45,573 nucleotides of DNA from a virus (IMGVR_UViG_3300035156_000171:1-45573); one strand, 5' to 3'. Positions 24,236 through 45,573 are shown, numbered from the stretch's first letter. A program made the numbers and translations. Notes: generated by a model from the sequence alone, not told the origin.

Positions 24236-24246
24236 GGCATCCTCGA

Positions 24247-27222: not shown

Positions 27223-27234
27223 TGAGGCTTTGAA

Positions 27235-28328: not shown

Positions 28329-28757
28329 ATGATCCTGTCCAAGCAAGACGAACTCTCCAACGCCCAGGCCGTAACGGTCTCGGCCGCGTCCACGAACCAG
28401 CAGGATTTCGGCCCGGCGGCCTACACTGGCAACTCTGCCGGCAAGAGCGTCGGGACTGTGTTCTTCAACGTGGACACCGATTTCACGGCGGCCGGCGCGG
28501 CGACGTTGCAGATGGGTCTGCGGTCCTCGGTCAACGCGGATATGTCCGGGTCCGTGACGCACCTCCTGACGCCCGCGATACCGGTGGCTTCGCTCAAGCG
28601 CGGCAACAGCCTCCGGGCCGCAGGCCTGATGCTGCCGATCCCGGACAACGTCCAGCGGTATGTCGACGTGTTCTATACCGTCGCGACCGGCCCGTTCACC
28701 GCCGGAGCCATCTCGGCGCGGATCACGCTGGCGCAGCCGAACAACGTCGGCGCGTAA
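28329..28757 (+). CDS. Capsid cement/decoration protein (142 aa), Bbp16-like
   Basis: MILSKQDELSNAQAVTVSAASTNQQDFG...YVDVFYTVATGPFTAGAISARI. Lies immediately after the capsid gene, as in BPP-1. Confidence 0.5.
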   Translation: MILSKQDELSNAQAVTVSAASTNQQDFGPAAYTGNSAGKSVGTVFFNVDTDFTAAGAATLQMGLRSSVNADMSGSVTHLLTPAIPVASLKRGNSLRAAGLMLPIPDNVQRYVDVFYTVATGPFTAGAISARITLAQPNNVGA

Positions 28758-28796
28758 TCGCGGCGGCCCACCTCGTAGAGCGGAGAGTTTCGAACA

Positions 28797-29540
28797 ATGA
28801 GCGAACAGGCAGACAAGGCGCGCGAGGCGGCCCGCAAGCAGCGCGATGCGGCCGACGCGGCGGCAGACAGGGCTGACAAGGCCGAAGGCACGGACGCCGC
28901 CAAGGCGGCTCAGGCGCGGCGTGAGGCCGAGCAGCGTGCGGAGGAGGTCAAGCTTGCGGCCGAGAACGCCGGCAAGTCGGATGCGGACAAGGCGAGCCTG
29001 CGGGCGGCCGACGCCGCGAAGGCCGAAGGTCTCGACGCTCGCGAGCTGGCGATCGACGCCCGCGAGAAGGACTTCGAAGCGCGCCTCAAGAGAATGGAAG
29101 ACGCGCTTCTCGGCGGCGCGACCGGCCTCCAGGGCGCACCCCTCGACCAGCCGAAGTCGACACACGTTCTCTCGCCCGGCTCTCAGAACGATCCAGCGGC
29201 GGTCGGCGTTGCCGGGGCGATGTCGGGGGTTACGTCCGGCCCGAAGCTCCAGCCGCACCCGCTGGCCGGGACGGACGCCTCGGCCCGTCCCATGTTCGAC
29301 TGGGTCGACGGCGAAGTGACCGTGTGGGGCCGGGACCAGCACGGCCGGGTGATCCGTCCGACCGAATATCCGCAGCTCACCGAGCAGGACGTGCGCCTGA
29401 CGAAGACGATCTACATCGACGATGCGATCCGCAACGCCGGGGAGATCATGCGTCAGTACACGGGGCCGCTGGGGTCCGGCATGATCCCGATCGGCCCGGA
29501 CGGCAAGGACTTGCCCCGGAGCCAGTACGACAAGCGCTGA
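28797..29540 (+). CDS. Virion-module protein (247 aa) with an Ala/Asp/Lys/Glu-rich coiled-coil N-terminus
   Basis: ORF in the track. The long opposite-strand ORF across it is Arg-rich and was rejected. Confidence 0.6.
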   Translation: MSEQADKAREAARKQRDAADAAADRADKAEGTDAAKAAQARREAEQRAEEVKLAAENAGKSDADKASLRAADAAKAEGLDARELAIDAREKDFEARLKRMEDALLGGATGLQGAPLDQPKSTHVLSPGSQNDPAAVGVAGAMSGVTSGPKLQPHPLAGTDASARPMFDWVDGEVTVWGRDQHGRVIRPTEYPQLTEQDVRLTKTIYIDDAIRNAGEIMRQYTGPLGSGMIPIGPDGKDLPRSQYDKR

Positions 29541-29562
29541 TCGCTTGCGCCTAGTCGCTAAC

Positions 29563-29587
29563 GCGCCGGCCGTGTGGTGGCCGGCGC
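29563..29587 (+). other. GC hairpin (9-bp perfect stem GCGCCGGCC/GGCCGGCGC, 7-nt loop) without a U-tract
   Basis: Lies in the 66-nt gap between 29540 and ATG 29607. Confidence 0.35.
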
Positions 29588-29606
29588 GAACTCTCTCGGG
29601 GTGGAC

Positions 29607-29930
29607 ATGGCCGCTGAACTCGTCTCGCTCAAGCGCACGCCCTCCGAGAAGAAAGAGGAAATGCCCTCCGAGTACACGCCGCCCGACTACGGGTACGGCA
29701 CGCGCCTGTCGCTGAACGAAGACGACATGGCGAAGCTCGGCATCGAGCGTGGGACGATCGGCGATACGATGATGCTCAACGCGAAGGTCCGCGTCTGCGG
29801 ATACAGCGAGGGCAGTCATGAGACGCATTCGCACAAGACGCTCGAACTCCAGATCACGGACGCCGCGCTCGCGCCGGCCGCGGACCCGAACAAGGTCGAC
29901 GACGCGACGGCCCTCTACGGGAAGCGCTGA
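29607..29930 (+). CDS. Small head-module protein (107 aa)
   Basis: GGGGTGGAC before ATG 29607. PPDYGYGTRLSLNEDDMAKLG...LELQITD is a pattern I have seen in small capsid-associated phage proteins. Confidence 0.5.
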   Translation: MAAELVSLKRTPSEKKEEMPSEYTPPDYGYGTRLSLNEDDMAKLGIERGTIGDTMMLNAKVRVCGYSEGSHETHSHKTLELQITDAALAPAADPNKVDDATALYGKR

Positions 29931-29932
29931 GA

Positions 29933-30892
29933 ATGGCCTCGTCCGACATCGCGATCGTCAATCTCGCGCTCGGCCACCTTCGCCAGCGGACCATCGCCAG
30001 CTTCGCCGACAGGTCGCCGGAAGCCGCGCGCGCAAGCGAGTATTACCCCCAGGCGATCGACACGGCTTTGCGCGCGTTCGATTGGACGTGGGCGCGCTCC
30101 TACGCGCCGGGTGTCCTGATCGAGGATGCGGCGATCCCTGGTTTCGCTTACGGGTTCGAATACCCGGCCGACTGCCTGATGCTGCGCGGGATCGCGAACC
30201 CGAACGCCCTCGATCCGCCCATCCCCTACAAGCTGGCCCGGTTCGGCGGCGATCAGGTCGTGTTCGCCAACGTGCTCGCGCCGACTTTCGTCTACACGGC
30301 GCGCGTGACGGACGTTCCGGACTACGACCCGCATTTCGTGCAGCTCGCGAGCTACCATCTTGCGGCCATGCTGGCGATGCCGTTGACGGGAAAGCGACAG
30401 CTCCTCGACGACATGCGCAAGATGGCCGAGGCCGCGCGCGATGGCGCATGGACGGACGCGGCAAATGAGGAGCCGAACACGATAGGCGAGGACCCAACTC
30501 CCGATTGGCTCCAGGCGAGGGGAGTGCCCAACCGAACGCGACAGGAGCGGTCGGCGCTAGCCTGGGGCTCCGACTGCGCACCGACGACGGGCGGTACGAT
30601 CCTCCCGAATTCGCAGAGCGCGGTCGCTCCGATCATGGTCACGTTGCCAGGGCCTCAAATCCTGCCGGCCTACATCCCCGGCCTGACCGCGCCCGTGCCG
30701 GAAATCATCGGCGAGGTGATCGAGGGCGTCTCGATCTACCTCGATGGCGGCCGGCTGCAAAATCGGAACCGGCGACCTGGCTCTTTCGACACGTCCGTTC
30801 TCTGCGACGGAGGCCGGCTTAACGGGGACGGCACGCGACAGCCGGAAGCTCCGGTTTACAATTACGTTGTCGCCGACATGGGAAGGCTCTGA
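29933..30892 (+). CDS. Head-to-tail adaptor / tail tubular protein A-like (319 aa)
   Basis: IAIVNLALGHLRQRTIASFADRSPEAARASEYYPQAIDTALRAFDWTWA is typical of the N-terminus of podovirus adaptor proteins. Confidence 0.6.
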   Translation: MASSDIAIVNLALGHLRQRTIASFADRSPEAARASEYYPQAIDTALRAFDWTWARSYAPGVLIEDAAIPGFAYGFEYPADCLMLRGIANPNALDPPIPYKLARFGGDQVVFANVLAPTFVYTARVTDVPDYDPHFVQLASYHLAAMLAMPLTGKRQLLDDMRKMAEAARDGAWTDAANEEPNTIGEDPTPDWLQARGVPNRTRQERSALAWGSDCAPTTGGTILPNSQSAVAPIMVTLPGPQILPAYIPGLTAPVPEIIGEVIEGVSIYLDGGRLQNRNRRPGSFDTSVLCDGGRLNGDGTRQPEAPVYNYVVADMGRL

Positions 30893-30894
30893 CC

Positions 30895-32766
30895 GTGGCT
30901 ATTGATCGCGTCGCACTGATCCAGCACGTTCGTTCGTTCGTTCCGGGCGAGCGTCCGGCCGCCATGTACGAAGGGGAAATTTTCTTCAACTTCGGCGATA
31001 AGATCATGCTCGTCGGCGACGGCGGCGCGGTCGATGATCTTCTGCCGATCGGGATTGGCGGGTCGTTTTTCTCCGAGCTTTTCCCGAACCTTATTAGCTT
31101 CAGCCCGGTCAAGGCGAACGGCACGAACAACGACGCCGTGCCGCTCGCGGCGTTTGCCGCGACTGTTCCGTCGATCCATTTCGACAGGGGGGTGGTGCGG
31201 ATTGCGACCGCGATGACGATCAGCAAGCCGATCAAGGTCAGCCCTGGCGCTCGCATCCGCATCGACGGCGTCGTGCTGACGGTCAACGCCGATGTGGAGG
31301 CGATCCCCTACGTTATTTTCGAGTGCGTCAATGGTGGCTCGGTCGTTTTCACCGAAAAGGGGCCGCGCGCCTCCCACGTCGAATGGTGGGGCGCGATCGT
31401 CTCGACCAGCCCGAGCGTGAACGATGGTGCTTCTCCGGCCGCGAATGCCGTCGCGATCAATGCCGCGATCCAGTCCGCGCCCCCGCAAGGCATGATTATC
31501 TACATGCAGCCGGGCTTCTATTGGGTCGATGATACAATCCGCCTGAATAAAAAGAAAGTCGAGCTAATCGGCCAGGGCTATCAATCGACCTATCTTTGGC
31601 ACACGACGAACGATAAGACGATGGTCTTAATCGGAACGGATGTCGCCACCGCGCCGTCGACTTATCCCAACTTCGATAATATCCGCATGACTGACATCTC
31701 GGCGCAGCGCGCAAGCGGCACCGCTATGTTCAACGCGGACTTTCTTCTCGGATCGAAAGGCATTCATATCCAGGGGACGGTGCGGGTTATCTTGACGCGC
31801 GTCGGTTCGGTGTTTTCGCAGTCCTGTTATTATTGGACCCGCACGACAAATTTTACCCCGATCGATTGCAGCGCTGTTTCTACGCCGACGACAGGGCAAA
31901 CGGCATATCTCTGGATGTGCGATTGCCGGCCTGATCCGCTTACGGACGTTCTGCTCGCGGGGCAAAGCTCGAATGCCTCGACGAAGTCGAGCGGCTGTAC
32001 AGCCTCGGCGAACAATAGCGCTGCCGGGGCTGGTACTTCGATTGCGCTCGCGGTGTATGGCCCGTGGTCCGACCAATTCTTCGAGGACTTCGAAAGCGCC
32101 GCCTGCGATTATGGCATGGACATCAACGGTCTTGATGGGACAAACAATCCGATCCGCGTCGATCTGATGTTCTACAATCCCGTATTCGATGGAGTGAAAA
32201 TTGCCGCTCACCGCTGGGGGCAGATGGGCACCCGATCGTCAGCCCGCATAGTTGGCGGGTGGACAGCCTTTCTCGGGTCGGCGGTCGGCCCTGTCGCTGT
32301 CGAAATGAACGCCGCCTTCAACGTGACTTACACCGCGCACGAGGTGACGGGGTGGACGAACGCGACATGCATCGGCTTGAAGCTCGATGCGAATTCCACG
32401 GGCATCATGTTCGGCAATACAAACCTGTTGAGCGATTTGTTCAGCCCCGTCATCGTGAATGCGGCGAACCTCTGTGACATCTCTCCTTGCATCACTGGAT
32501 ATGCTGGCACCAAGGCCACGGCGCAGGCCGCTATCGCGATCTACGCTGGGGCTCGCAACAAGTTCGAGCCGTTCATTCATGGCGTTACCGGGGCGTTCGG
32601 CAACGGCATCGTCGGCGTCGCGGCGGCTCCGACGCACTCCGAATTTAACTTGACCGGCATAAGCCCTGGAGCTCTTGTGGCGTCCAAGCTTTTGCTCAAC
32701 GGCGTCGCCATCCCGACGCGCGGCGATTACGGAACGGCAAACTATGTCACGGGGGTCATGACGTGA
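30895..32766 (+). CDS. Tailspike / receptor-binding protein with a pectate-lyase-like beta-helix (623 aa)
   Basis: GTG start. VKANGTNNDAVPLAAFAA resembles the GDGVTDDTAAIQAA start of Pectate_lyase_3 domains. Followed by many short G/N/T/V-rich repeat-like strands. Confidence 0.65.
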   Translation: MAIDRVALIQHVRSFVPGERPAAMYEGEIFFNFGDKIMLVGDGGAVDDLLPIGIGGSFFSELFPNLISFSPVKANGTNNDAVPLAAFAATVPSIHFDRGVVRIATAMTISKPIKVSPGARIRIDGVVLTVNADVEAIPYVIFECVNGGSVVFTEKGPRASHVEWWGAIVSTSPSVNDGASPAANAVAINAAIQSAPPQGMIIYMQPGFYWVDDTIRLNKKKVELIGQGYQSTYLWHTTNDKTMVLIGTDVATAPSTYPNFDNIRMTDISAQRASGTAMFNADFLLGSKGIHIQGTVRVILTRVGSVFSQSCYYWTRTTNFTPIDCSAVSTPTTGQTAYLWMCDCRPDPLTDVLLAGQSSNASTKSSGCTASANNSAAGAGTSIALAVYGPWSDQFFEDFESAACDYGMDINGLDGTNNPIRVDLMFYNPVFDGVKIAAHRWGQMGTRSSARIVGGWTAFLGSAVGPVAVEMNAAFNVTYTAHEVTGWTNATCIGLKLDANSTGIMFGNTNLLSDLFSPVIVNAANLCDISPCITGYAGTKATAQAAIAIYAGARNKFEPFIHGVTGAFGNGIVGVAAAPTHSEFNLTGISPGALVASKLLLNGVAIPTRGDYGTANYVTGVMT

Positions 32767-32954
32767 TGGCGAAGAAACCGCGCGACCCGGCTCACATCTA
32801 CAGCGAGCCCGCTTCGGATCGAGGAAAGACGCTCAGCGCTCGACCTGGGACGATCGTCGAGAAACACCGGCCGGCTCTGGAGCGCGCAATCGCCATGTCG
32901 GCCGCCTACCGCGAGGCGAACGATCCGCCAGTCGAGAAAGACCCGGATGCCTAA
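32763..32954 (+). CDS. Hypothetical protein (63 aa)
   Basis: ORF in the track, overlapping both neighbours. Confidence 0.4.
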   Translation: MMAKKPRDPAHIYSEPASDRGKTLSARPGTIVEKHRPALERAIAMSAAYREANDPPVEKDPDA

Positions 32955-35046
32955 AAAGCTCCAGGCGTCGTTCACAGGCGGCGAACTCGATCCTAAGCTA
33001 CACGCGCGCGTCGATCTCGCGAAGTATGGCACGGGCGCTGCCCGCATGCTGAACTGGATCGTACACCCCTTCGGGGGCGCGTCGAACCGGCCGGGCCTGG
33101 AATTCGTGGGCCGGGCGTTTGGCGATCAAGACGTTGTTCGACTTGTTGAATTCGAGTTGTCGAACAACGATACGTGCGTGCTGGAATTTTCGAATTTTGC
33201 AATGCGCGTGATCCGTCGCGGCGTGTACGTTCGCACGACCGGCAACGTGATCTATACGCTTGTGACCCCCTATCCAGCGTCAATGTTGTTCGACCTTTCT
33301 TTCCAGCAATCGAACGACGTTCTAACGATTACGACCGTATTTCATCCGCCGACTAGGTTTTCGCGCTTTGCGAACGACAACTGGGTTATCGATCAAACAC
33401 TAGTCGAGGCCCTGGAGGTTGGGCCGATTGGTTTAGTTGGTTCAAACACGCAGAACATCCCACTGCCTCCCGACGTGTATTACGGCGAGACCGAGAACAT
33501 TTACACGGTTACGTTTATCAGTGGCACGACCGGGCGCGAAAGCGTTCCGAGCGGTTCATTGAATATTCTTAACGACATGAACCTTTCCGGGTTTGAGAAT
33601 AACATAGAATGGGACCCTCAGGCCGGCGCGTCCTCTTATCGAATTTATAAACTAAAAGGCGGCGCTTACGGGCTGATAGGCTATCACGATCGACCTATTG
33701 CACCGGGAGATAAAGGTAAATTCGTCGACAAGAACTTTATTCCTGATACGACGCAAGGTTTGCCGCAAGCTAAAGACCCTTACGCGGGGGATGGGAACTA
33801 CCCGAAAACCTCGACGATATTCCAGCAACGCGCGGCGTTCGGCGGGTCTTTGCTCAAACCGAACCGGATTAATCTTTCTCAATCCGGAGATTACAACAAC
33901 TTCAACACGTCTTTTCCGACCCGAGACGGGGATGCGATCGAATTCGCGCTGGCCGCGCGGAAGCGACAGGACGTGCAATTCTTCGTTTCCGTCGAAGACC
34001 TTATCGTGTTCACGACCGGCGGCGAGTGGCGCGTGCGCGGTACAGACGACGGGAGCCTGACGCCGGCCTCGATCGATGCGAAACAACAGTCGTCTTATGG
34101 GTGCGACCCGCGCATTCAGCCGATGATCGTTCAGGACGATATCATTTTCGTCGAGGCCAAGGGCGGGACGGCGCGCTCCATCGCCTATGATTTCGGGTCC
34201 AACAAATACAAGGGCGTGAACCTGTCTCTCCTGGCGGCCCATTTGTTCGAAGGGCGCACGGTCGTGCAAATGGCTTACGCCGGCACGCCGAATTCCACGG
34301 TGCTTCTTGTGATGAGCGACGGCGCAGTGCTGTCTTTCACGTACCTGAAGGAAGAGGAAGTGTTCGCGTGGTGCGAGCATCGGACTGACGGTGTTTTCGA
34401 AAGCGTCGCCGTCGTCGCCGAAGACGATGAAGACGTGCCGTACTTCGTAGTCCGGCGGGTGATCGGTGGCGTCGAGGTGAAGTACGTCGAGCGTCGTCGC
34501 TCGCGTCGCATTTACCGGGCCGACGATGCGTTCTTCATCGACAGCGGGCTTACGTATGAAGGCGCGGCGACGACGACGATTTCCGGGCTCGACCACCTTG
34601 CCGGCAGGTTGGTATCAGGCACGATCGACGGCGTTCCGGTGCGCGACCTTCCGGTTTCCGGCGGCGGCGGCGTCACACTTCCGTTTGCCGGGACGCTCGT
34701 CTCGCTCGGCCTGCCCTATGTCTCCGAGTTGGAAACGCTCGACCTCGACGTTGGGAATGTGGCGCTGAACGGCGAGCTGCGGAACCTGCAAAAGTGCATC
34801 GTCCATGTCGAGCGCTCGTCCGGCCTAGAGTACGGGCCGGGGCGCACGGCCGAGCGGTTCGAATACACGCCGCGCGAGCTGGAGGGAGAAGTCGTGACGG
34901 ACGGCTTGTTCACGGGGAAATTCGAGGCGAAGTTCGACGGCGATTGGAATACGAACGGCCGGATGTTCTTCCAGTGCTCCCTGCTGCCTGTCACAATCCT
35001 CGCCGTAGTGCCGACGTTCGACGCAGGTGGCGACAGTGAGGGATAG
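32947..35046 (+). CDS. Tail tubular protein B / nozzle (699 aa)
   Basis: LQASFTGGELDPKLHARVDLAKYGTGAARMLNWIVHPFGGASNRPGLEFVG is the characteristic N-terminus of podovirus nozzle proteins. Confidence 0.7.
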   Translation: MPKKLQASFTGGELDPKLHARVDLAKYGTGAARMLNWIVHPFGGASNRPGLEFVGRAFGDQDVVRLVEFELSNNDTCVLEFSNFAMRVIRRGVYVRTTGNVIYTLVTPYPASMLFDLSFQQSNDVLTITTVFHPPTRFSRFANDNWVIDQTLVEALEVGPIGLVGSNTQNIPLPPDVYYGETENIYTVTFISGTTGRESVPSGSLNILNDMNLSGFENNIEWDPQAGASSYRIYKLKGGAYGLIGYHDRPIAPGDKGKFVDKNFIPDTTQGLPQAKDPYAGDGNYPKTSTIFQQRAAFGGSLLKPNRINLSQSGDYNNFNTSFPTRDGDAIEFALAARKRQDVQFFVSVEDLIVFTTGGEWRVRGTDDGSLTPASIDAKQQSSYGCDPRIQPMIVQDDIIFVEAKGGTARSIAYDFGSNKYKGVNLSLLAAHLFEGRTVVQMAYAGTPNSTVLLVMSDGAVLSFTYLKEEEVFAWCEHRTDGVFESVAVVAEDDEDVPYFVVRRVIGGVEVKYVERRRSRRIYRADDAFFIDSGLTYEGAATTTISGLDHLAGRLVSGTIDGVPVRDLPVSGGGGVTLPFAGTLVSLGLPYVSELETLDLDVGNVALNGELRNLQKCIVHVERSSGLEYGPGRTAERFEYTPRELEGEVVTDGLFTGKFEAKFDGDWNTNGRMFFQCSLLPVTILAVVPTFDAGGDSEG

Positions 35047-35506
35047 CGGGTTCGTGGTTCGTCGCGCCATCGAGGGCGATGCGGAGGCCCTGGCGGCGAA
35101 CCTGCGGGATGTCGACAGGCGCGAGATAGCCGCGACCTCGCTTGCCGACCCGCTCGCCGCAATCCGGCGGTGTCTCGCGAATTCCGAGAAAACGTGGGTG
35201 GGCGAACTCGACGGCGAGCTGATGTTCGTTTCCGGGATTTCGGATCGCAACTTCATGTCGGCTCGGCGCGCGCCCTGGCTGCTCGGAACGCCGCTGATCG
35301 AGACGCGGCCTTGGCCGTTCCTTCGCTACACAAAGGCGAAGATGCCGGAGCTGATCGCCGCGTATCCACACATGGAGAACCATATCGACGCGCGCTCTAC
35401 GCGCACGATCGCGTGGCTCGCGTGGCTGGGATTTACGATCCATCCGGCGATGCCCTATGGTGCGCTGTCGAGACCGTTTCATCGGTTCACGCTCGGGGGC
35501 CGGTGA
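35027..35506 (+). CDS. T7 gp13-position protein, GNAT-like (159 aa)
   Basis: FVVRRAIEGDAEALAANLRDVDRREI is acetyltransferase-like. Lies between the nozzle and the internal proteins, as T7 gene 13 does. Confidence 0.45.
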   Translation: MATVRDSGFVVRRAIEGDAEALAANLRDVDRREIAATSLADPLAAIRRCLANSEKTWVGELDGELMFVSGISDRNFMSARRAPWLLGTPLIETRPWPFLRYTKAKMPELIAAYPHMENHIDARSTRTIAWLAWLGFTIHPAMPYGALSRPFHRFTLGGR

Positions 35507-35598
35507 TGTCGCGTGACGCTTGGTTGTGGGCGACCATCATCGAAACCGCTCTCGACCTTCTCTTGATCGCCGTCGCGCTGTGGTGGGCCTATGTGTGA
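35506..35598 (+). CDS. Small TM protein (30 aa)
   Basis: ATG overlaps the TGA. MSRDAWLWATIIETALDLLLIAVALWWAYV*. Confidence 0.35.
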   Translation: MSRDAWLWATIIETALDLLLIAVALWWAYV

Positions 35599-36103
35599 AA
35601 TCGCGACACTCTCCCTTGCGGCCGGGCTCCTCGGAACGGGCGTCTCGGCGATTGGCTCGATCCAGCAAGGAAACGCAGCGCGCGACGCGGCCGAATATCA
35701 GGAAGTCGTCGACCGCAACAACTCGATCCTCGGTATACGAGCGGCCAACGATGCGCGGGCGCGCGGCGCGGAGGCCGAGCAAACGCAGCGCCGGAAGAAT
35801 GCCGCAGTGCTCAGTCGCCAGCGGGTGGCGTTCGCCTCGCGCGGCGTCGAACTCGACAGCGGCTCGCCCCTCGACATTCTCGGCGACACGGCGCAATTCG
35901 GCGAACTCGACGCCCTGACGGTGCGCGAGAACGCGGACCGCGAGGCGCGAGGCAGCGAGGCGCAGGCCCGGAATTTCCGGGCGTCCGGCGATCTAGCGCG
36001 GATGCGAGGCGAAAGCGCCGCGTCGGCCGGCGTCACCTCGGCGTTCTCGACGGCGTTGTCCGGCGGGTCGTCCGTGGCCTCGAACTGGTATCGGATGAGG
36101 TGA
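35591..36103 (+). CDS. Internal virion protein, gp14-like (170 aa)
   Basis: MCEIATLSLAAGLLGTGVSAIGSIQQGNAA hydrophobic N-terminus plus an Ala/Arg-rich helical body. Lies before the SLT protein. Confidence 0.6.
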   Translation: MCEIATLSLAAGLLGTGVSAIGSIQQGNAARDAAEYQEVVDRNNSILGIRAANDARARGAEAEQTQRRKNAAVLSRQRVAFASRGVELDSGSPLDILGDTAQFGELDALTVRENADREARGSEAQARNFRASGDLARMRGESAASAGVTSAFSTALSGGSSVASNWYRMR

Positions 36104-36107: not shown

Positions 36108-39100
36108 GTGGCGATCCAAGTCCAATCCAATGTGAACCGCACGGTCGAAACCGCGCGCGCTCCGAACGAATTTCAGAGCGACGCCGGGGCGATGCCGGAG
36201 GCATTCGGCGCGCTTGAAGGCCGGGCGCTGGCCGGGGCCGGCAACGCGCTCCAGGGTGTCGGCAACGAACTCGCCGCGACCGCGTTCCGCCAGCGCGAGG
36301 AAGACGAAGCGCGCGGCGTTCTCGATGCGAACAACAAGCTCCAGGATGCGAGCCGCCGGTTCAAGTTCGGCGAGGACGGTAACGGCGGCGTGCTGGCCCG
36401 GCAGGGCGAGGCCGCGATCGGGATCACGAAGGACACGCAAGCGTTCTATGCCGAACAGGTGAAGACGCTCGGTTCCGAACTCAAGAGCCCGAAAGCCAAG
36501 CTGCAATTCGACCGGGTCGTGTCGCAACAGCGTGACGCGGACCTCGACGCGACGGCGCGGCGCGAGGCGGACAACCGGCTCAAGGCCGGAGCGGACGTGG
36601 CGAAGGCCACCGTCGAGCGGGCGACGCAGAACGCGATCGACGCGGCCAACGATGACAAGGTCGCGCAAGCGAGCATGAACGTCGGGCTGGCCGCAATACG
36701 TTCGAACATCGCCGGTTCGCCGAAAGAGGTGGTCGACGCCGCTGCGGAAGCGTTCAAGTCCGACCTCCAGACGAAGCGGATCGAGCGCATCGCCGTCGAC
36801 AGCCCTGCTAAGGCAGAGGAGATGTACGGCCGGCTGAAGGGCGACATTCGTGGCGCGGATCACGTCAAGGTCGAGCGGCTCCTGCGCCCGTTGCAGGATC
36901 GTCGCGACGGTCTTGCCGTGGCTGCGGAATACACCGGAAGCCCTGGCCCGGCCGTCCAGCGGCTTGGCGAGGCGGCGACCGCTCCGCAGCCTGTGCGGGT
37001 CTCTGGCGCGAACCTGCCGGCCCTCGTGACCTCGACGGCTTCGGCGGAAAGCAACTTCCGGCCTGGGGCGGTCTCGCCGAAGGGCGCGGCCGGCATCTTC
37101 CAAGTCATGCCGGAGACGGCGCGCGAAATTTCGGCGAAGCTCGGCGACGGCCTGATCGGGCCGAATACGTCGCAAGCGGAAATCAAGCGCATCCTGGCCG
37201 ACAGGGACACGGGCCTCCGGTACGGAACGTCCTATCTGCGGGATCAGCTGGTGCGGTTCGGCGGGGACATTCCGGCTGCGCTCGTCGCATACAACGCCGG
37301 GCCAGCCCGTGCGGAAGAATGGCTCAAGGTTCGCAAGTCGCCGAACGACCTCTCGTCGCTGCCGAAAGAAACCAGGGATTACGTTCCGAAGGTGATGACG
37401 CGGTATGCCGATCTCGACGGTGGATCGCCGGACGTGATCGGCGGCGAGCCGGACGCTTACAGCCTGGTCCGAATGGGCGCGCTGCCGAAGGCCGGCGAGC
37501 GCATGACGCGGCAGAATTGGTCGCTTAAATTTTACAAGGCGGGTGACATGCTGCCGCCGTCCGGCGATGTGGCGGTCGACGCGCGCGCGGCGGTCATGGC
37601 CGATACGCTGGGATCGCGGTTCTTCGAAGCGACCGGAATTCGCGTCCCGATCAACGACGACCGCGAGGGGCCGGGCACTCACGGCAAGCGGCGGGGCGTG
37701 CGCGACCCGCACGACAACCCCGGCGCGAAGGGATCGCAGCATCTTCACGGGCGCGCCTTTGATTTTCAGGTTCAGGCGCTCGACGAAGGGCAGAAAGCCC
37801 TGTTCCTCAAGATGGCGCGCAAGACGGGGTTTTCGGGGGTTGGCTTCTATGACGACGGACCTGGGCATTTGCACTTGGATACGGGCCGCGCGCGGTCGTG
37901 GGGTACGCAGCCCAAATGGGCCGGCGGCGCGATGGGTATCCCGGCGCTCGGGCAATCGGACATGGCCGTACCGGCAACCGTCGGCGGGCTACCTGTCCCC
38001 GCCTCGATGCGTGCTGGAGCGGGCGGCAGAGAAACGGCGGCTCTACGTGCTGTCGCAGCTCGCCCTGCTGGAACGGGCACAAGCTTCCTGCCTCCTGCAC
38101 TGACGCCGGAGGCGCGCGACCTGATCGGCACGCCCGCGCCCACCGTCTCGTCCGTTGCGGCGGGCGCATCGTTCGGCGTCGTGCCGCCGGCCGTGTCGTC
38201 CGCGCTCCGGCTCGGCGATGATTTCGATCCGCAGGCGTGGCGCGATGCGGTGGCGAACGATCCGCGCCTCGACACACCAACGAAGCTGTCGAGCGCGAAG
38301 GCGGCCGTGGAGCGGGAAATCCGGGCGCGTGAGGGCTCGCGAAAGTCGGCGACGCGCGAGCTGCGGAACGAAGGCATCCGGCACGTCCAGGCCGGCGGGT
38401 CGGCCGACGACCTCAAGCCGGAGATTTACAGCGCGCTCGTCGAGCTCGATCCGAAGTTCGTGACTGACACCCTGCCGGCGATGGAAGAACGCATCCGCAA
38501 GCGCAAGGACACGACGGACGAGACGGTGATGTACGGCCTGTCGCAAATGTCGAAAGACGAGCTGGCCGACCTCGACCTGACGAACTATGCGCACAGGCTG
38601 TCGCGCTCGGATTTCGAGAAGTTCGCCGACCGCCAGAACGCGGCTCGATCAGGACGCGCGGCCGACGCCCTCAAGTGGGAGGGGATCGACACGCAAAAGG
38701 CCATCGCGACGAACGCGCTCACGGCGGCCGGGATCGTGGTCGACAAGGACAAGCCGGAGACGGCCGCGCGGGCCGGGCTGTTCATGCAGCGACTGGAGAC
38801 GCGCGTGGCGGCGTTCTCGGCGGAGAACAAACGGGTGATGAAGCCGGCTGAGCTGAGCGAGACGATCGCGAACCTCCTGACGCCTCTGAACCAAGGGGAT
38901 TACACCGGCAAGATGAAATACCTTTTCGAGGCCGGCACGCCGGAGGAAAACGATTTCCGCCGCCGGAACTCGCTGCCGCTGCCGGATGTGGGCCGGACGT
39001 TTCAGCCGGCGCGCAAGCTGGAGGAAGTCCCGCAGGCTTCTCTGCAAACGCTGGTCGACAACCACGCGACGTTGCGCGGGACGACGCCGAACGCGGCGCA

Positions 39101-39344
39101 GTCGATGCAGTATTTCAATGATTACACGGCGCTCTCGGTCGGCCGTGACATCGAACCGTCCGTCGCCGATCGCCGTGAAATCATCGAAGGTTTGCGGAAG
39201 AAGTTCGGGCCGGGTATCCAGAACGATGCGGGTCGACGCGAGGAGCTAGAAGCGAAGGTGCGCGACGTGTACGCTCGCACGCTGCGGGTACTCCTGACGC
39301 CCAAGCCAGCCGCCGCGCCAGCGAGCCCGGCCATACCCTTCTAG
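36108..39344 (+). CDS. Internal virion protein with a lytic transglycosylase (SLT) domain and a peptidase M15-like domain (1,078 aa)
   Basis: GTG start. SAESNFRPGAVSPKGAAGIFQVMPETA (catalytic Glu314 codon at 37047..37049) and YNAGP. GSQHLHGRAFDFQV...GVGFYDDGPGHLHLD (HxxGxAxD...HxH zinc-peptidase pattern). Confidence 0.85.
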   Translation: MAIQVQSNVNRTVETARAPNEFQSDAGAMPEAFGALEGRALAGAGNALQGVGNELAATAFRQREEDEARGVLDANNKLQDASRRFKFGEDGNGGVLARQGEAAIGITKDTQAFYAEQVKTLGSELKSPKAKLQFDRVVSQQRDADLDATARREADNRLKAGADVAKATVERATQNAIDAANDDKVAQASMNVGLAAIRSNIAGSPKEVVDAAAEAFKSDLQTKRIERIAVDSPAKAEEMYGRLKGDIRGADHVKVERLLRPLQDRRDGLAVAAEYTGSPGPAVQRLGEAATAPQPVRVSGANLPALVTSTASAESNFRPGAVSPKGAAGIFQVMPETAREISAKLGDGLIGPNTSQAEIKRILADRDTGLRYGTSYLRDQLVRFGGDIPAALVAYNAGPARAEEWLKVRKSPNDLSSLPKETRDYVPKVMTRYADLDGGSPDVIGGEPDAYSLVRMGALPKAGERMTRQNWSLKFYKAGDMLPPSGDVAVDARAAVMADTLGSRFFEATGIRVPINDDREGPGTHGKRRGVRDPHDNPGAKGSQHLHGRAFDFQVQALDEGQKALFLKMARKTGFSGVGFYDDGPGHLHLDTGRARSWGTQPKWAGGAMGIPALGQSDMAVPATVGGLPVPASMRAGAGGRETAALRAVAARPAGTGTSFLPPALTPEARDLIGTPAPTVSSVAAGASFGVVPPAVSSALRLGDDFDPQAWRDAVANDPRLDTPTKLSSAKAAVEREIRAREGSRKSATRELRNEGIRHVQAGGSADDLKPEIYSALVELDPKFVTDTLPAMEERIRKRKDTTDETVMYGLSQMSKDELADLDLTNYAHRLSRSDFEKFADRQNAARSGRAADALKWEGIDTQKAIATNALTAAGIVVDKDKPETAARAGLFMQRLETRVAAFSAENKRVMKPAELSETIANLLTPLNQGDYTGKMKYLFEAGTPEENDFRRRNSLPLPDVGRTFQPARKLEEVPQASLQTLVDNHATLRGTTPNAAQSMQYFNDYTALSVGRDIEPSVADRREIIEGLRKKFGPGIQNDAGRREELEAKVRDVYARTLRVLLTPKPAAAPASPAIPF

Positions 39345-39357: not shown

Positions 39358-42300
39358 ATGGCCGGATTGTTCGACGCTGCCGTTGAGGATGTCGCGGCAA
39401 GCGAGGACATGACGGCCCGCGCGGCGACGCCGGGTTCGACGCTGGCACCTCCCGCGCCGGCCTCCTCCGGCTCGCCGCTGGGCTCGACCGGGTTCGAAGA
39501 ATTGCCGGACCCGGCGAACGCGCCGGCCGCGACGCCTGCCCGCTCGATGTTCTCGGCCGCGGTCGATGACGTGGCGAACGACGACAACGCCCGTCTGTCC
39601 GGGGCGCTGGAGATGGCGCGCGCGTCCGACCCGGCGAAGTATGCGGAGGCGCGGGCAATTGCCGATCGCGACGCCCTGCCGATGGAATTCGTGACGGCTA
39701 ACCTCGATGATCTGAAATCGAGGCAGACGGCGAACGACATGCGCCGCGTTCTCGAAGACACGCCCGCGCTCAAGCAATGGTTCCTGACCGGCGACAACGC
39801 AAACGTCGTGAAGCGCGACGACTTGCACAAGCTTTCGGGCCTCGATCACCTGCTCGCGTCGAGCGCGGCCGGCTGGTCTGAGGGCTGGGATCAGCGGCAG
39901 TCGGCGGACATCCGATACCGCCAGATTTTCGGACGCGCATCGGCGGCCGAGATTGCCAGGGCGGACGCGGCGGACAAGCAAGAGGCGCGAGACTTCGGCG
40001 CGGAAGGGTTCTTCCAGGGCGCACCGGCCGCATTCTCCAAGATGCTGCCCGGCTTGCTGGGGTCGACCTCTGCCGGCCTCGCGCGCGCGTCTCAGACGGC
40101 ACCGGCCGGCGCGGCGCTCGGGGCGCTCGGCGCTGGCCCGGCGGGGGCGGCGGCGGGGTTCGCGACAGGCGCGGCGGTGGGCGTCACGGCCGGACGCCTG
40201 GAGGATAATTTTCGGCAGGAAGCCGGCGGGGCCTACTCCGAATTCCTGCGGATAAAGACGGACGACGGCGCGGGCCTCGACCCGGACATCGCCAAGGCGG
40301 CAGCGCTGATCGCGGGCATGGCGTCGGCCGGTCTGGAAACGATCGGCGAGGCGGCGATCGAGCGGATGGTTCCGGGCCTCGACAAGATCGGCGTGGCCTC
40401 GCTGCTCAAGGGCGGATCGCGCGAGGCGCTGAAAGAGGCGATCAAGCAACCATCGATTCGCGCAGCGCTCAAGGCGTTCGGCGGCGGGATCGCCGGAGCG
40501 ATGGGAACCGAGATTGGCACAGAAGTAGCTCAGGAGGGCGTCACGCTCCTTGCCGGGCTTGTGGCGCAGCGAGTGGACGGAGGCGAGTTTCAGGCCGTGG
40601 AAGGCCGAGAGGTGCGCGAGCGTCTAGTCGCTACGGCGACCGAGACGGCGCAGGCGATGCTGATCCTCGCGCCCGCGCTCGGGTCGACCCGGCTCGGTCG
40701 CGACCTTGCCGTTGCCAAGCGGTCGGTCGACATGCGCGAGATGTATCAGCAAGCGCACGACATGGCTGGAGAGACCGAGCTGCGAAAGGTTGCGCCGGAA
40801 CGCTACCTCGACGCGGTCAAGTCGTTCCTGGGCCAGGGCAAGGCAGCGGACACGGTCTACGTGCCGGCCGGCAAGATGACAGAGCTGTTCCAAGAGATGG
40901 GCCTGTCGCCGTCCGACCTCGACGCTCGGATCGACGGGTTCTCCGGTCGGTATGCGGAGGCGGTTGCGACCGGTTCGGATGTGCATATCGACATGGCCGC
41001 ATATCAGACGCACATCGCCGGCACGCCGCTCGGCGAGGCGCTGATCGAGCATCAACGGTGGCACCCGGAGCTTGAGACGGTCGACGAAGCGCGGCGGGCA
41101 TTCGAGGCCGCGCGCGAGCAAACGGACGCCATGCTTGAGGACGCCGTGAACGCGGCGCGCGAGGACGCGGCGAAGGCGGCTCCTCGCCAGCAAGTCGAAA
41201 CGAAGGTCTATGAACTGCTCGTCAACATCGGCGAAAGCCCGGAGGCCGCGCGGACCCAGGCGGCGTTGTACGGCGCGACGTTCGGGACGCTCGGCGAGCG
41301 GGCCGGCGTGTCTCCGCTGGAGCTGTTCGAGGCGCAAGGTCTCGACGTGCGTCGCGCTATGCCGGATGGCCTGGATTATCGCAAGGTCGATGAACTCGAA
41401 ATCGCCATCGACGCGGTGCGCAAGGGCGATGGAGAGCGGGCGCGCAGGGCCCGTGCAAGAGGCCAGGGACAAAGCCTCGCGTCGTTCCTGGCTTCGCGCG
41501 GCGGGCTCGTCGAGACGGATAGCTTCAAGGGCGAGCTGTCTTCGCGTGATTTGCCGAAGGGGCTGATCGGCAAGCCGGACAAGGGGCTCGACCTCGACAG
41601 CGCCGCGTTGGCCGCGCTTGAGGCCGGGTACTTCCCGGACGCTGTGACGGAAGACGGCGGGTTCGATCGAACAGGGTCCGTCGAGGCGTTGCTTGCTGCG
41701 ATCGACGACGAAGTTGCGGGACGCCCGCGTTACACGATCGAGGCGGAAGCGGTGAACATCGATCCGTCGCTTGCGCGGATCGAGGCGCTTGCGGATGAAA
41801 TGGCGATCCTCGGCCTAGACCCGGCGTCGATGACGAACGACGAAATTCGCGCTGAACTCATGAGATCGTCGAGCCCGGACGCTCTGAATGGAGCGCTGTT
41901 TCAGACGGCGGGCCGTCCCGACCTTGCCGGCGACCGTGGCGACAAGCGCGGCTCGATCCAGTTCGGCGACGGCTCGACCATCATCAACCTGTTCCGTGCC
42001 GCGAACCTGTCGACGTTCCTGCACGAAAGCGGCCACCTGTTTTACGAGGTGATGCAGCAAGTCGGCGGGCGCGAGGGTGCGCCGGATCAGCTCGCGACCG
42101 ACCTCGCGACGCTGCACGCCTTCACGGGTGCGGAGGTGGGCAAGCCCATCTCACGCGAGGCGCATGAGAAGTTCGCCAAGGCGTTCGAAACCTACCTCTC
42201 TGAGGGCCGCGCCCCATCCCCTGACCTTGCCGGCGTTTTCGAGCGGTTCAAGTCCTGGCTGATGTTCGTCTACCGCGGCGCGGCCCGCGCGATCGGCCTG

Positions 42301-45300
42301 CCTGCGATCCCGGCTGAAATCCGCGACGTGTTCGATCGCATGCTCGCGACGGACGAGGAAATCGCGGACATCGCGAAAGACCCGTCGTTCCGGCCTGTGT
42401 TCAAGGATGCTGCTGCGGCCGGCATGACTGAGCTGCAATGGTCTCGGTATCAGGCGTCGGCGCAGAACGCGACTGACGCGGCCAAAGGCGAACTCCTGGC
42501 GAAGCTCGTCGGCGAGAAAAAGCGCGAGCAAACGCGCGAGTGGAAGGCGGCCAAGGAAGCCACGCGCGAGGAAGTGTTCGCCGACCTCGCGACGCGGCCG
42601 GTCTATCAGGTCCAGCACTACATCCGCACGGGCGAAATACTGAACGGCGACGGCGTCGTGCCGATCGACTTGGCTGTGCGCCGGCTCGACCGCCAGTGGC
42701 TCGTGAACCGTTTCGGCGCGGGCGTCCTCTCGCGCCTGCCGCGACAAGTTCCGCCGGTCTACACGGACAAGGGCGGCCTCGACCCGGACGAAGTCGCCGA
42801 GTGGTTCGGGTTCACGTCCGGCGAGCACATGGTCGGCGAGATGCTGTCCGCGCCGTCGTTCGCCCGCGCCTTGAACGCTCGGGTCGACGAGCTGATGCGC
42901 GAGCGCAACGGCGACCTGATGTCGAACCAAGCCGCGATGACGGAAGCGGCGACCCAGGCGTTCAACAACGACGAGCGGGGCGTCTTCCTCGAAACCGAGC
43001 TGAAGGCGCTCGCGTCCAAGGCCAAGGGTTCGCCCGGAAACCCAATGCCGAGGCAACAGGCACGCGCCACGGCCCGCGAGCTGATCCGGGGTAAGGTTGC
43101 CGCCGAAGCCGGCCGCGTGGCCGTGTACGCCCGCGCTAGGGACAAGGCGGCGCGCGAGGCAGAGCGGGCCGTCCTGACGGGGGACTTCGCGGCGGCCACG
43201 GATGCCAAGCGCCGCCAGTTGTTCCACCATTTCATGACGCAAGAGGCGACCGCCGCGCGCGACGAGGCAGAGGCGACGCGCCGCTACCTCGACAAATTCG
43301 CCAGCCGGAAGCGTCCGCCGGGCGTCGACCCGGAATACCTCGACCAAATCGAAGGGTTGCTGGAGCGGTTCGAATTCAAGCGGTCGACAAGCCTCACGGC
43401 GATCAACCGGCGCAAGTCCCTGTCGGCGTTCGTGCGCGAGCGTGAGGACGCAGGCGACGCCTTCGCGATCCCGGAAGACCTTCTGACGGACGCCCGTTTG
43501 GTCTCGTACAAGGACATGACCATGCTCGATCTCGCGGCGCTCCGCGACGTGGTCAAAAATCTCGAACACCTGGGCCGCCTCAAGGGACAGCTCCTCAACA
43601 AGGGGCGGCGCATCTCCTTCGAAAAGGCGCGCGACGAACTCGTACTACAGGCGCGACGGACGCCGAAGAAAAAGGGGATCAAGGGGCGCAACCCCACGGA
43701 CTGGGAGCGCATGAAAGGCACGGTCGCCGGCCTCGATGCATGGTTGCTCAAGATGCAGACCGTGTTCGATTGGTTGGACCTGGGCGATGTTAACGGCCCG
43801 TTCCAGCGCTTGATCTGGCAGAAGTTCGTCGACGCTCAGAACAAAAAGGGCGAGTTGCAAAAGGAATTCGCGGACAAAATCCAGGCGATCATGACCGGGA
43901 TGCCAAAGGGGTATCTTGCCGAGAAGAAGTCTGTGCCGGCCCGGCCCGAGTTGATGTTCACGCGCTCCGAGCTGTTCGCGATCGCGCTGAACCAAGGCAC
44001 GGAAAGCAACCGGAACAAGCTTCTCAAGGGCGAGACCGTGTCGCGCCTGGAGGGGCGTTCGTTCAACAACGAAGTCGAGATGAATTCTGCGCTGTCACTC
44101 CTGTCGAAGGAAGATTGGGACCGCGTGCAATCCTTGTGGGATTTACTGGAGGGCATGTGGCCGGAGACGGCGGCGCTGGAGAAGCGCATCTCCGGCGTCG
44201 AGCCGCCGCGCCTGGAGCGCCGCGAAGTCATCACGGCGTTCGGCACCTATCGCGGCGGGTATTACCCGATGGTCTACGATCCGCTGGTGTCGGGCGACGT
44301 GGCTCGGCGTGCGGAGGAGGAGGCGGACAAAAAGTTCGACAATGTCTATTCCCGCCCGGCCGTCGCGCACGGTTTCACGAAAGCCCGCGTCGAGGGTTAC
44401 AGCCGGCCGGTGCTGCTCGACCTTCGCGCGCTCACGTCCCACATCGACGGCGTGATTCACAACCTCACGCACCGCGAGGCCGTGCGTGACACGCTCAAGC
44501 TCATAGCGGACCCGACGCTCGAACTCGCTCTGACGGAGACGATGGGGCGCGAGGTGTACGGCGAGATGAACAAGTGGCTCGACCGGATCGCGAAGGATCG
44601 CGGCGACCCGCCGGCCGATACTGTGGCGGCAAATATCCTCCGGCAAGCGAAGACGAATATCAGCGTCTACGCGATGGGGTTCCGGCTCACGACGGCGCTA
44701 TCGCAGTTCGCCGGGTTCGCGAACTCCGTCGAGGTGGTCAAGCCGTCATTCCTGGGCGCGGCGATGATCCATTCGACCCGGCATCCGCGCGAGGCGTGGG
44801 CGCTCGTCCAATCGAAGTCGGGCCAGATGCGCGACCGTGTCAACAATATGGACCGAGACATCCGTGCCGCACTTCGCGCTCTGGAGGGCAAGGACGGCAT
44901 GCTCGACGGGGCGAAGCGTTACGCCTTCATCCTCGTCGCGATGGCCGACAGGGTGGTGACGGTGCCGACTTGGCTCGGGGCCTACAACCAGCACATGGCG
45001 ACGTATCCGGGCGACGAAGCCGGCGGCGTGCGCGCGGGCGATCGGGCCGTCGACCTGTCGCAAGGATCTGGCGCGACCAAAGACCTGTCCTCGATCATGG
45101 GTAATCAGGGCGGCGCGTTTCAGTTCATGACGTTGTTCTATTCGTATTTCAACACGTACTACAATCGGCTGCGGTCTCTCGGCAGAGATACGCGGACGAT
45201 GTTCGCGGACGGAGAATACGAAGACTTGCCGCATCTCCTTGCGCGCTCGGTCGCGCTCGTGATCCTGCCGGCCCTCATGGCGGATTTGCTCGTGGGCAAG

Positions 45301-45573
45301 TGGCCGGAGGAAGACGAGAACGTGGCGTGGTGGGCGCTGCGAAAGTCGGCGCTGTACCCGTTCATGTCCGTTCCGCTGGCGCGCGACATCGCGTCGTCGC
45401 TAGATAGCGGGATGGATTACAGCCTGTCGCCGATCGCCCGGTTCGGCGAGCTGGCCGTAAAGCTGACGAAGGACGGACAGAACGTCATCTCCGGCGAGGG
45501 CGTCGAGGGGCGGCTCGTCGCCAAGCGTGCGGCCGAACTCGCGGGCTACACGTTCGGGTTGCCGCTGGGGCAG
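39358..45573 (+). CDS. Giant internal virion / ejection protein, first 2,072 codons. It continues across the junction to a stop at 233..235 (2,107 aa total) and carries an HExxH zincin-like motif.
   Basis: ATG 39358 lies 14 nt after the upstream stop. The frame stays open to the last base, so with no stop it is missing from the ORF track. GC3-rich codons. Gly/Ala-rich hydrophobic stretch (GAALGALGAGPAGAAAGFATGAAVGVTAG). HESGH at 42022..42036. It follows the gp14-like and SLT/M15 internal proteins. Confidence 0.85.
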   Translation, partial: MAGLFDAAVEDVAASEDMTARAATPGSTLAPPAPASSGSPLGSTGFEELPDPANAPAATPARSMFSAAVDDVANDDNARLSGALEMARASDPAKYAEARAIADRDALPMEFVTANLDDLKSRQTANDMRRVLEDTPALKQWFLTGDNANVVKRDDLHKLSGLDHLLASSAAGWSEGWDQRQSADIRYRQIFGRASAAEIARADAADKQEARDFGAEGFFQGAPAAFSKMLPGLLGSTSAGLARASQTAPAGAALGALGAGPAGAAAGFATGAAVGVTAGRLEDNFRQEAGGAYSEFLRIKTDDGAGLDPDIAKAAALIAGMASAGLETIGEAAIERMVPGLDKIGVASLLKGGSREALKEAIKQPSIRAALKAFGGGIAGAMGTEIGTEVAQEGVTLLAGLVAQRVDGGEFQAVEGREVRERLVATATETAQAMLILAPALGSTRLGRDLAVAKRSVDMREMYQQAHDMAGETELRKVAPERYLDAVKSFLGQGKAADTVYVPAGKMTELFQEMGLSPSDLDARIDGFSGRYAEAVATGSDVHIDMAAYQTHIAGTPLGEALIEHQRWHPELETVDEARRAFEAAREQTDAMLEDAVNAAREDAAKAAPRQQVETKVYELLVNIGESPEAARTQAALYGATFGTLGERAGVSPLELFEAQGLDVRRAMPDGLDYRKVDELEIAIDAVRKGDGERARRARARGQGQSLASFLASRGGLVETDSFKGELSSRDLPKGLIGKPDKGLDLDSAALAALEAGYFPDAVTEDGGFDRTGSVEALLAAIDDEVAGRPRYTIEAEAVNIDPSLARIEALADEMAILGLDPASMTNDEIRAELMRSSSPDALNGALFQTAGRPDLAGDRGDKRGSIQFGDGSTIINLFRAANLSTFLHESGHLFYEVMQQVGGREGAPDQLATDLATLHAFTGAEVGKPISREAHEKFAKAFETYLSEGRAPSPDLAGVFERFKSWLMFVYRGAARAIGLPAIPAEIRDVFDRMLATDEEIADIAKDPSFRPVFKDAAAAGMTELQWSRYQASAQNATDAAKGELLAKLVGEKKREQTREWKAAKEATREEVFADLATRPVYQVQHYIRTGEILNGDGVVPIDLAVRRLDRQWLVNRFGAGVLSRLPRQVPPVYTDKGGLDPDEVAEWFGFTSGEHMVGEMLSAPSFARALNARVDELMRERNGDLMSNQAAMTEAATQAFNNDERGVFLETELKALASKAKGSPGNPMPRQQARATARELIRGKVAAEAGRVAVYARARDKAAREAERAVLTGDFAAATDAKRRQLFHHFMTQEATAARDEAEATRRYLDKFASRKRPPGVDPEYLDQIEGLLERFEFKRSTSLTAINRRKSLSAFVREREDAGDAFAIPEDLLTDARLVSYKDMTMLDLAALRDVVKNLEHLGRLKGQLLNKGRRISFEKARDELVLQARRTPKKKGIKGRNPTDWERMKGTVAGLDAWLLKMQTVFDWLDLGDVNGPFQRLIWQKFVDAQNKKGELQKEFADKIQAIMTGMPKGYLAEKKSVPARPELMFTRSELFAIALNQGTESNRNKLLKGETVSRLEGRSFNNEVEMNSALSLLSKEDWDRVQSLWDLLEGMWPETAALEKRISGVEPPRLERREVITAFGTYRGGYYPMVYDPLVSGDVARRAEEEADKKFDNVYSRPAVAHGFTKARVEGYSRPVLLDLRALTSHIDGVIHNLTHREAVRDTLKLIADPTLELALTETMGREVYGEMNKWLDRIAKDRGDPPADTVAANILRQAKTNISVYAMGFRLTTALSQFAGFANSVEVVKPSFLGAAMIHSTRHPREAWALVQSKSGQMRDRVNNMDRDIRAALRALEGKDGMLDGAKRYAFILVAMADRVVTVPTWLGAYNQHMATYPGDEAGGVRAGDRAVDLSQGSGATKDLSSIMGNQGGAFQFMTLFYSYFNTYYNRLRSLGRDTRTMFADGEYEDLPHLLARSVALVILPALMADLLVGKWPEEDENVAWWALRKSALYPFMSVPLARDIASSLDSGMDYSLSPIARFGELAVKLTKDGQNVISGEGVEGRLVAKRAAELAGYTFGLPLGQ
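45447..45573. repeat. Terminal direct repeat copy B (identical to 1..127)
   Basis: Same 127-nt string as 1..127. It lies inside a coding frame, which fits an assembly overlap of a circular or circularly permuted molecule. Confidence 0.95.

Follow-up and report, generated by a model that had tools for sequence, protein, structure and literature searches.

The viral genome IMGVR_UViG_3300035156_000171, presented as a stretch of 45,573 nucleotides (the window, the whole of the DNA that was analysed), ends within its largest open reading frame (ORF), and this raises the questions of whether the gene is real, to which family its product belongs, and what a phage might use such a protein for. The ORF begins at 39358 on the forward strand, and we refer to its product as the giant. 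We find that the gene is real and continues across the ends of the window to specify 2,107 residues, that by sequence its product is homologous to Bbp10 of Bordetella phage BPP-1 and gp16 of Pseudomonas phage AF, and that it is probably the largest of the internal (ejection) proteins in a BPP-1-like podophage, a polyvalent protein of the phage type and the counterpart in position of T7 gp16 and N4 gp50.

The frame opens with an ATG at 39358, the nearest in-frame stop upstream being a TGA at 39295, and there are no stops through base 45573, a run of 2,072 codons (39358..45573). The first 127 nt of the window are identical to the last 127 nt (45447..45573), and when the frame is joined to base 128 onward it continues with codons 2073–2107 and closes at a TAG at 233..235 (128..235, forward strand). 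The original prediction, made from this sequence alone, proposed just such a 2,107-amino acid (aa) ORF and the use of the 127-nt overlap to close the circle, and both proposals are borne out by the independent ENA contig ERZ27253086 k141_1224668 (MEGAHIT, 45,587 bp). An identical 2,107-aa protein (P0001) was called on this contig, where the gene is internal and uninterrupted. The DNA of the gene and the surrounding 12,324 bp are base-for-base identical in the contig and the circularised window. The contig has an overlap of 141 nt at another place than that of the window, and both linear forms reduce to the same unit genome of 45,446 bp (45,587 − 141 and 45,573 − 127), so the 127-nt copy is a linearisation artefact of a circular assembly. 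A physical 127-bp direct terminal repeat was considered and rejected, with the source contig having its 141-nt overlap elsewhere and an intact gene. The window is thus a re-linearised copy of k141_1224668 with the cut point inside its largest gene. The giant is missing from the mechanical ORF list, as had been remarked, because it runs off the window end and such ORFs go unlisted. The gene occupies 6,324 of the 45,446 bp, or 13.9% of the genome, which agrees with the initial estimate of about 14%.

A search of 5.8 billion proteins yielded 88 homologues of 1,547–3,572 aa, among which twelve from uncultured (metagenomic) sources are 59–69% identical to the giant; the closest cultured phages are at about 33%. 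In a PHROGs scan phrog_9880 covers aa 859–2096 at 1,178 bits, and the C-terminal ~1,200 aa are thus homologous to the Bbp10-like family of giant proteins. A tblastn search with aa 815–2072 recovered 51 phage records at 28–35% identity and 90–100% coverage, and these include Bordetella phages BPP-1, BIP-1 and BMP-1, Pseudomonas phage AF, CP2-like Xanthomonas phages and the Caulobacter JessA group, as well as Vibrio, Cobetia, Octadecabacter, Nostoc and Microcystis phages; megablast for a near-identical cultured phage gave no match. Both Bbp10 (NP_958679, 2,052 aa; phmmer E=4e-146) and AF gp16 (2,213 aa; phmmer E=4e-214) are true homologues, sharing with the giant an N-terminal LPD22 domain, an HExxH module (HESGH at 797 and HELGH at 1007, respectively), a long C-terminal block and a position after a protein with an SLT domain. 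They are only ~32–35% identical, however, and differ in what they carry in a variable region, which is PBECR1 in Bbp10 and LPD23 together with a second HExxH in AF gp16. The giant gave no match in an NCBIfam scan, and searches for PDB sequence relatives with the single sequence and with the family profile returned low-complexity matches only. It contains no cysteine, and histidine makes up 1.1% of its residues.

Mapping the homologues onto the giant resolves it into four parts, all on the forward strand. These are an N-block (aa ~50–670, 39505..41367), which aligns colinearly in most homologues; a variable cargo slot (aa ~671–859, 41368..41934); the HExxH module (aa ~860–1010, 41935..42387, extending to ~1100); and the C-block (aa ~1011–2107, 42388..45573, then 128..232), a large all-alpha conserved module. 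Family members differ chiefly in the content of the cargo slot. The initial view that the rest of the protein held no nameable domain was too pessimistic, for a cargo slot can be recognised together with conserved N- and C-blocks, the latter block being present in more than 12,000 clusters.

The HExxH module is built around HESGH at aa 889–893 (42022..42036; H889, E890 and H893), which is present in 83 of the 88 homologues; the expectation of an HExxH arising by chance from the composition of the giant is ~0.02. The motif and its residues had been correctly located, although the string originally given, LHESGH, is one codon too long for these coordinates. When the five homologues without the motif are aligned to the giant, aa ~860–1010 are passed over entirely, and the module looks absent rather than mutated. 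Downstream lies the segment EKFAKAFE (42166..42189), whose conserved E937 and E944 are candidates for the third zinc ligand. Conservation by column is striking for alignments at ~30% identity: H889 is retained in 76/76 sequences, E890 in 75/76, H893 in 75/76, E937 in 79/79 and E944 in 76/79, and in the HExxH tile residue E88 shows no variation. The residues that are invariant or nearly so are H889, E890, H893, E937, G950, P953, F961 and R994, and RG864–865, ST885–886, D915, E944, Y946, W967, Y972 and D993 are highly conserved. An AlphaFold2 model of this region, built from a 38-sequence alignment, has a predicted local distance difference test (pLDDT) score of 86 and places a beta-hairpin before the HExxH helix, followed by an inserted helix, a helix with H936-E937 and E944, and then long helices; the HExxH and Glu helices are both predicted at pLDDT >90. 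The hairpin followed by a helix is compatible with a zincin fold, and the pairing of an HExxH helix with a downstream Glu helix, conserved across relatives, is that of a gluzincin-type motif. Several relatives have large insertions between these two helices, and inserts at this place are typical of polyvalent metallopeptidases (MPTases; Iyer 2017, PMC5512222). The conservation of the general-base Glu and of three putative ligands makes it likely that the module contains an active gluzincin-type site.

We note that the module also occurs in a set of long proteins of 1,547–2,816 aa (P0074, P0077, P0078, P0080, P0081, P0083–P0085 and P0087) that match the giant over the HExxH module only, at 36–46% identity, and do not have the C-block. 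The HExxH module therefore moves between different giant-protein scaffolds.

The cargo slot always directly precedes the HExxH module. Measured from where the N-block ends to where the module begins, its length is anything from −31 to 1,326 aa, depending on the homologue. In the giant it is 194 aa, among the shortest, and this version of the slot is common to only twelve close metagenomic homologues. The slots of relatives contain ART-PolyVal, GNAT, Zeta_toxin, DUF3293, LPD3, LPD23, LPD37, DUF7178, MuF_C or PBECR3, but the 194-aa slot of the giant has no match in Pfam or NCBIfam. An anti-defence role for the giant is accordingly putative; its cargo is small and without an assigned domain, so that nothing here says that it counters host defences.

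This arrangement is that of the phage-type polyvalent proteins described by Iyer, Burroughs, Anand, de Souza and Aravind (2017; PMC5512222), who proposed that they are processed by their MPTases. Like them, the giant is very large and multidomain, is encoded among virion genes, has an LPD domain and is organised about an HExxH hub. The LPD domain is LPD22 (aa 83–171, 39604..39870, forward strand; Pfam PF18834, E=1.2e-11), which stands at the start of the N-block and scores 45.1 bits against a Pfam curated cut-off of 28.6. The giant differs in that the polyvalent relatives hold ART, GNAT, PBECR and zeta-toxin domains within one polypeptide, whereas it has no recognisable effector enzyme beyond the HExxH module, which together with LPD22 makes up its nameable domains. 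The comparison with polyvalent proteins had been made in the original prediction, and it is sustained by LPD22 and by homologues that carry ART-PolyVal, GNAT, Zeta_toxin, PBECR1/3, MuF_C and LPD3/23/37 at one fixed position.

The C-block belongs to a very large family. When 1.84 billion cluster representatives (clusters at 50% identity) were searched with its profile, there were 14,587 matches at E<=0.001, 12,635 at E<=1e-10 and 9,045 at E<=1e-30; the best 150 are proteins of 962–3,543 aa, every one of which has the block at its C-terminal end. Despite its occurrence in more than 12,000 clusters, Pfam and NCBIfam have no model for the C-block, nor for the HExxH module. An AlphaFold2 model of aa 1096–2072 (pLDDT 80, predicted template modelling score 0.69) is nearly all alpha-helical, and Foldseek found no fold match for it in the PDB. 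Against predicted viral structures (BFVD) there are 87 matches at E<=0.001, with template modelling (TM) scores up to 0.74 and identities down to ~12%, and all of these are C-terminal chunks of long phage proteins; their names describe them as LPD-, ART-PolyVal-, MuF_C-, GNAT-, nuclease- or 'crystallin-motif'-containing. Ten residues of the block are invariant (Y1327, N1545, N1551, G1613, Y1635, P1637, D1641, R1677, S1821 and R1827), and the motifs ALNxGN, GGYYPxxYD and HTKxR suggest that it contains a functional site. By hydrophobicity there are two hydrophobic helices near its end, at aa 1855–1875 (44920..44982) and aa 1956–1983 (45223..45306), both on the forward strand. In a preprint on phage PhiXacm4-11 the syntenic gp35 (2,300 aa) is regarded as a core protein, and no similarity to it was found in the PDB.

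Within the N-block there is a Gly/Ala-rich, glycine-zipper-like stretch at aa 251–279 (40108..40194, forward strand), which accounts for the membrane-like segment that had been noticed at the outset, and an EAGGAY motif lies next to it. The family consensus retains the G-rich pattern, and the stretch gives weak matches to a tape-measure PHROG and, in homologues, to DUF6861; we regard it as a candidate membrane-insertion element. The Gly/Ala segment followed by EAGGAY (aa 251–296, 40108..40245) is also found in N4 gp50 (aa ~224–305) at near-equal numbering, and the helices of gp50 at aa 224–278 are experimentally membrane-inserting (PMC13434306). The likeness may reflect remote homology or convergence.

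The reading of the giant as an ejection protein derives from its place in the genome and from its relatives. It is the last gene of a cassette that follows the tubular tail A and B genes and runs through a gp14-like protein and an SLT protein to the giant, as is found in the Bbp10-like family; in BPP-1 and AF the genes are ordered as here, the homologue of the giant being preceded by small internal virion proteins and an SLT 'endolysin', and N4 and epsilon15 have a matching gene order with the largest internal protein last. Hardies 2016 (PMC4819975, Table 2) lists Bbp10 as IVP-D, the T7 gp16 homologue, of BPP-1, and notes that IVP-D homologues host domains destined for the cytoplasm, the N4 RNA polymerase among them. 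The giant likewise is the largest of the internal proteins, is mainly alpha-helical and is encoded last in the cassette. The earlier label of 'ejection protein' fits both this synteny and the IVP-D listing.

The resemblance to T7 gp16 and epsilon15 gp17 is one of synteny and presumed role. T7 gp16 differs in carrying the SLT domain itself, rather than having it on the preceding protein as here, and has neither an HExxH module nor a cargo slot. Comparison of the family with epsilon15 gp17 by hhalign gave E=0.081 with a single sequence and E=0.025 with an 11-sequence profile, T7 gp16 gave E=0.099, and the N4 C-terminal domain (CTD) family gave E=0.037 against the C-block with a thin N4 profile (from a CTD-only search, 14 partial homologues). 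Hidden Markov model (HMM) scores against the T7 gp16, epsilon15 gp17 and N4 sequences are at or below 1 bit, and none of these proteins is in the top 50 BFVD fold matches; the published IVP-D homology of Bbp10 to T7 gp16 (PMC4819975) was not reproduced. The best of the weak hhalign matches share one colinear stretch of the C-block, aa ~1630–1790, where GGYYPMVYD...KARV in the giant corresponds to KGTYVPHVYD...KARV in T7, and we consider this similarity as a lead only.

Two other ejection proteins are instructive for their layout. N4 gp50 (PMC13434306) has a membrane-inserting N-terminal domain (NTD), an RNA polymerase (RNAP) cargo, a C1 domain of ~250 aa with an HExxH, and a C2 domain of ~1,125 aa that is all-alpha and structurally without homologues. 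The protein leaves the virion as beads on a string and is anchored in the inner membrane. Like the giant, it is encoded at the end of the ejection cassette by the largest gene there, and the two share the order of parts and the Gly/Ala segment followed by EAGGAY, but the cargo of gp50 is an RNA polymerase and the giant has none. The NTD and CTD of gp50 have no significant score against the family HMMs (at or below 0 bits), there being a colinear biased alignment and EAGGAY only, and the homology asserted in the literature did not emerge from these comparisons. The second protein is gp27 of cyanophage A-4L (1,717 aa; PMC12002296, PDB 9K2V), which like the giant follows a protein with SLT and metallopeptidase domains (~1,060 aa) and forms the outer layer of the pre-ejectosome, seen in the capsid core by cryo-electron microscopy. 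A-4L gp26, gp27 and gp28 show no sequence or profile similarity to the family, and Foldseek of the C-block model gave no match to gp27.

If the giant is an ejection protein of this kind, T7 and N4 would be the models for how it works: a few copies would be loaded onto the portal alongside the remaining core proteins. T7 gp14 forms an outer-membrane channel, and at infection the gp14-like protein encoded here would open the outer membrane, with the SLT/M15 protein cutting the peptidoglycan and spanning the periplasm. The giant would be threaded out after these two proteins, largely unfolded, and its glycine-zipper and hydrophobic helices would anchor it at the inner membrane and complete the DNA channel, while the cargo and the HExxH module would reach the cytoplasm. 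The HExxH module, most likely an active zinc metallopeptidase, would then cut in cis beside the cargo slot and so release or activate the cargo, which in this phage would be the 194-aa module.

Several results weigh against this interpretation, and the first of these concern the fold of the HExxH module. Foldseek comparison of its model with the PDB returned no zincin and no other match (best E=0.98), and the zincin of the original prediction is therefore upheld for the motif, which is real and essentially invariant, but not for the fold, which structure comparison leaves unconfirmed. Pfam searches with 38 members recognised the module in none of them, and no family recurs. Three profile matches, all of them to the strand and the HExxH, are marginal: Spartan SprT at E=0.033; DUF4344 at E=0.011, a match under the cut-off and confined to a single member; and N4 gp50 CTD-C1 by hhalign at E=0.0028 with a probability of 11%. 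The module is thus a predicted zincin-like metallopeptidase of the polyvalent-protein type, a designation that draws on motif conservation, predicted topology and these marginal matches. Membrane anchoring is weakly supported because the predictions contain a single strongly hydrophobic helix, at aa 1956–1983, and hhalign and HMM comparisons do not show homology of the C-block to T7 gp16, epsilon15 gp17, the N4 gp50 CTD or A-4L gp27. Presence in the virion, ejection, zinc binding and proteolysis are all properties that we infer across the family by analogy. Finally, the N4 vRNAP, with an analogous HExxH domain, is reported to be packaged unprocessed (PMC5512222) and proteolysis is not described for it, so the HExxH module may not be a cis-acting protease.

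This last point leads to the explanation that survives best among the alternatives, that the giant has a structural role alone, as an ejection or core protein that forms the inner-membrane and cytoplasmic end of the DNA channel, the HExxH module being regulatory or holding a metal for structural reasons and nothing being cleaved. It accords with the reported unprocessed state of the N4 vRNAP, in which the HExxH-bearing CTD regulates the RNAP intramolecularly, with the absence of a fold-level match of the module to any peptidase, and with the very small cargo present here. However, a structural site would not need the general-base Glu that is kept in 75/76 sequences along with both His residues and the downstream Glu; the module always borders variable cargo, and members that lack the HExxH show no alignable module. 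We consider this explanation to be unlikely.

An improbable alternative is that the HExxH module is itself the effector, an injected protease that cuts host proteins (for example those of defence or the envelope) in trans. Iyer 2017 names this as one option for polyvalent MPTases, and the mobility of the module into other long proteins that do not have the C-block and its retention here beside a minimal cargo both speak for this reading. Yet its fixed position between cargo and C-block over hundreds of architectures suits a role in cis better, neither a host target nor a feature for substrate binding came to light, and the module does not resemble the known zincins of toxins or effectors. That the giant is a lysis or tail protein is highly improbable: the GenBank labels 'lysin', 'lysis protein' and 'crystallin beta/gamma motif-containing protein' are attached to homologues matched by tblastn and are used in two papers, but Pfam, PHROGs and NCBIfam find no muralytic or crystallin domain in the giant, the SLT and M15 domains are on the upstream 1,078-aa protein, and its position and size match those of internal virion proteins. 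We have rejected the 'lysin / crystallin' annotation, and these names appear to have been propagated from the BPP-1 record.

Beyond the reading of the giant as a polyvalent ejection protein, we offer a tentative and rather doubtful generalisation, in which the N-block, cargo slot, HExxH module and C-block would constitute a general delivery chassis whose layout, and perhaps descent, is common with that of the N4 vRNAP. The strictly conserved metallopeptidase would be a cis-acting release protease that sets free the content of the slot on arrival in the cytoplasm, aa 671–859 a new injected effector, and the C-block, with its invariant N/N/Y/D/R/S/R constellation, a new all-alpha translocation or membrane fold.

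The family, its polyvalent nature and its assignment to ejection are already published (Iyer 2017; Hardies 2016), and the giant is a new, cargo-poor member of it. At least 12,600 clusters (50% identity) share the C-block, and a gene of this kind takes up ~14% of the genome in almost all BPP-1-like podophages; there are no solved structures of family members and no Pfam models for either the HExxH module or the C-block. The fixed slot beside an invariant metallopeptidase motif suggests a swappable effector-injection system, and it bears both on phage–host arms races and on the engineering of protein-delivering phages. The giant adds no new principle, but it is a clean, minimal example with hardly any cargo and could serve as a scaffold-only reference.

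Judged from PHROG and Pfam scans of the genome, the phage is a BPP-1-like podovirus. The small terminase gene begins at 19230 and the large terminase gene at 20773, followed by those for the portal (from 24064), protease/scaffold (from 26257), major capsid protein (from 27235), tubular tail A (from 29933) and tubular tail B (from 32947). Next is a cassette of four genes on the forward strand, which code for a 159-aa internal virion protein (35027..35506; phrog_308, E=1.4e-32), a 170-aa T7-gp14-like internal virion protein (35591..36103; Pfam T7_gp14, E=2.3e-10; phrog_418), a 1,078-aa internal virion protein (36108..39344) with an SLT domain at aa 303–412 and an M15-type peptidase at aa 539–598, and lastly the giant (from 39358). 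Internal or ejection proteins thus take up ~10.6 kb of coding sequence (35027..235), in keeping with the prior figure of more than 10 kb and including the 159-aa protein that had not then been listed.

Some of the neighbouring genes have features of their own. The 1,078-aa protein has two distinct wall-cutting domains, an SLT transglycosylase and an M15/MepK-like L,D-endopeptidase, and this pairing is also present in cyanophage A-4L gp28, with undetectable sequence similarity. Between the genes for tubular tails A and B is a 623-aa forward ORF (30895..32766) that matches pectate-lyase/rhamnogalacturonase-like beta-helix proteins (Pfam PF12708, E=2.2e-6; no PHROG match); it is likely a depolymerase or tailspike, for which this is an unusual site. 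A 421-aa forward ORF (246..1511) begins 11 nt past the stop of the giant, with a weak PG_binding_1 match (E=5e-4) and a resemblance to part of a large 'endolysin' PHROG; the BPP-1 gene at this position is a tail fibre. We found no tRNA genes in the whole window. The minus strand has a replication block with a RecE-like exonuclease (4095..4862), a primase-helicase (9493..11973) and a match to a 'topoisomerase' PHROG (14736..15647), and the guanine plus cytosine content of the genome is 63.6%.

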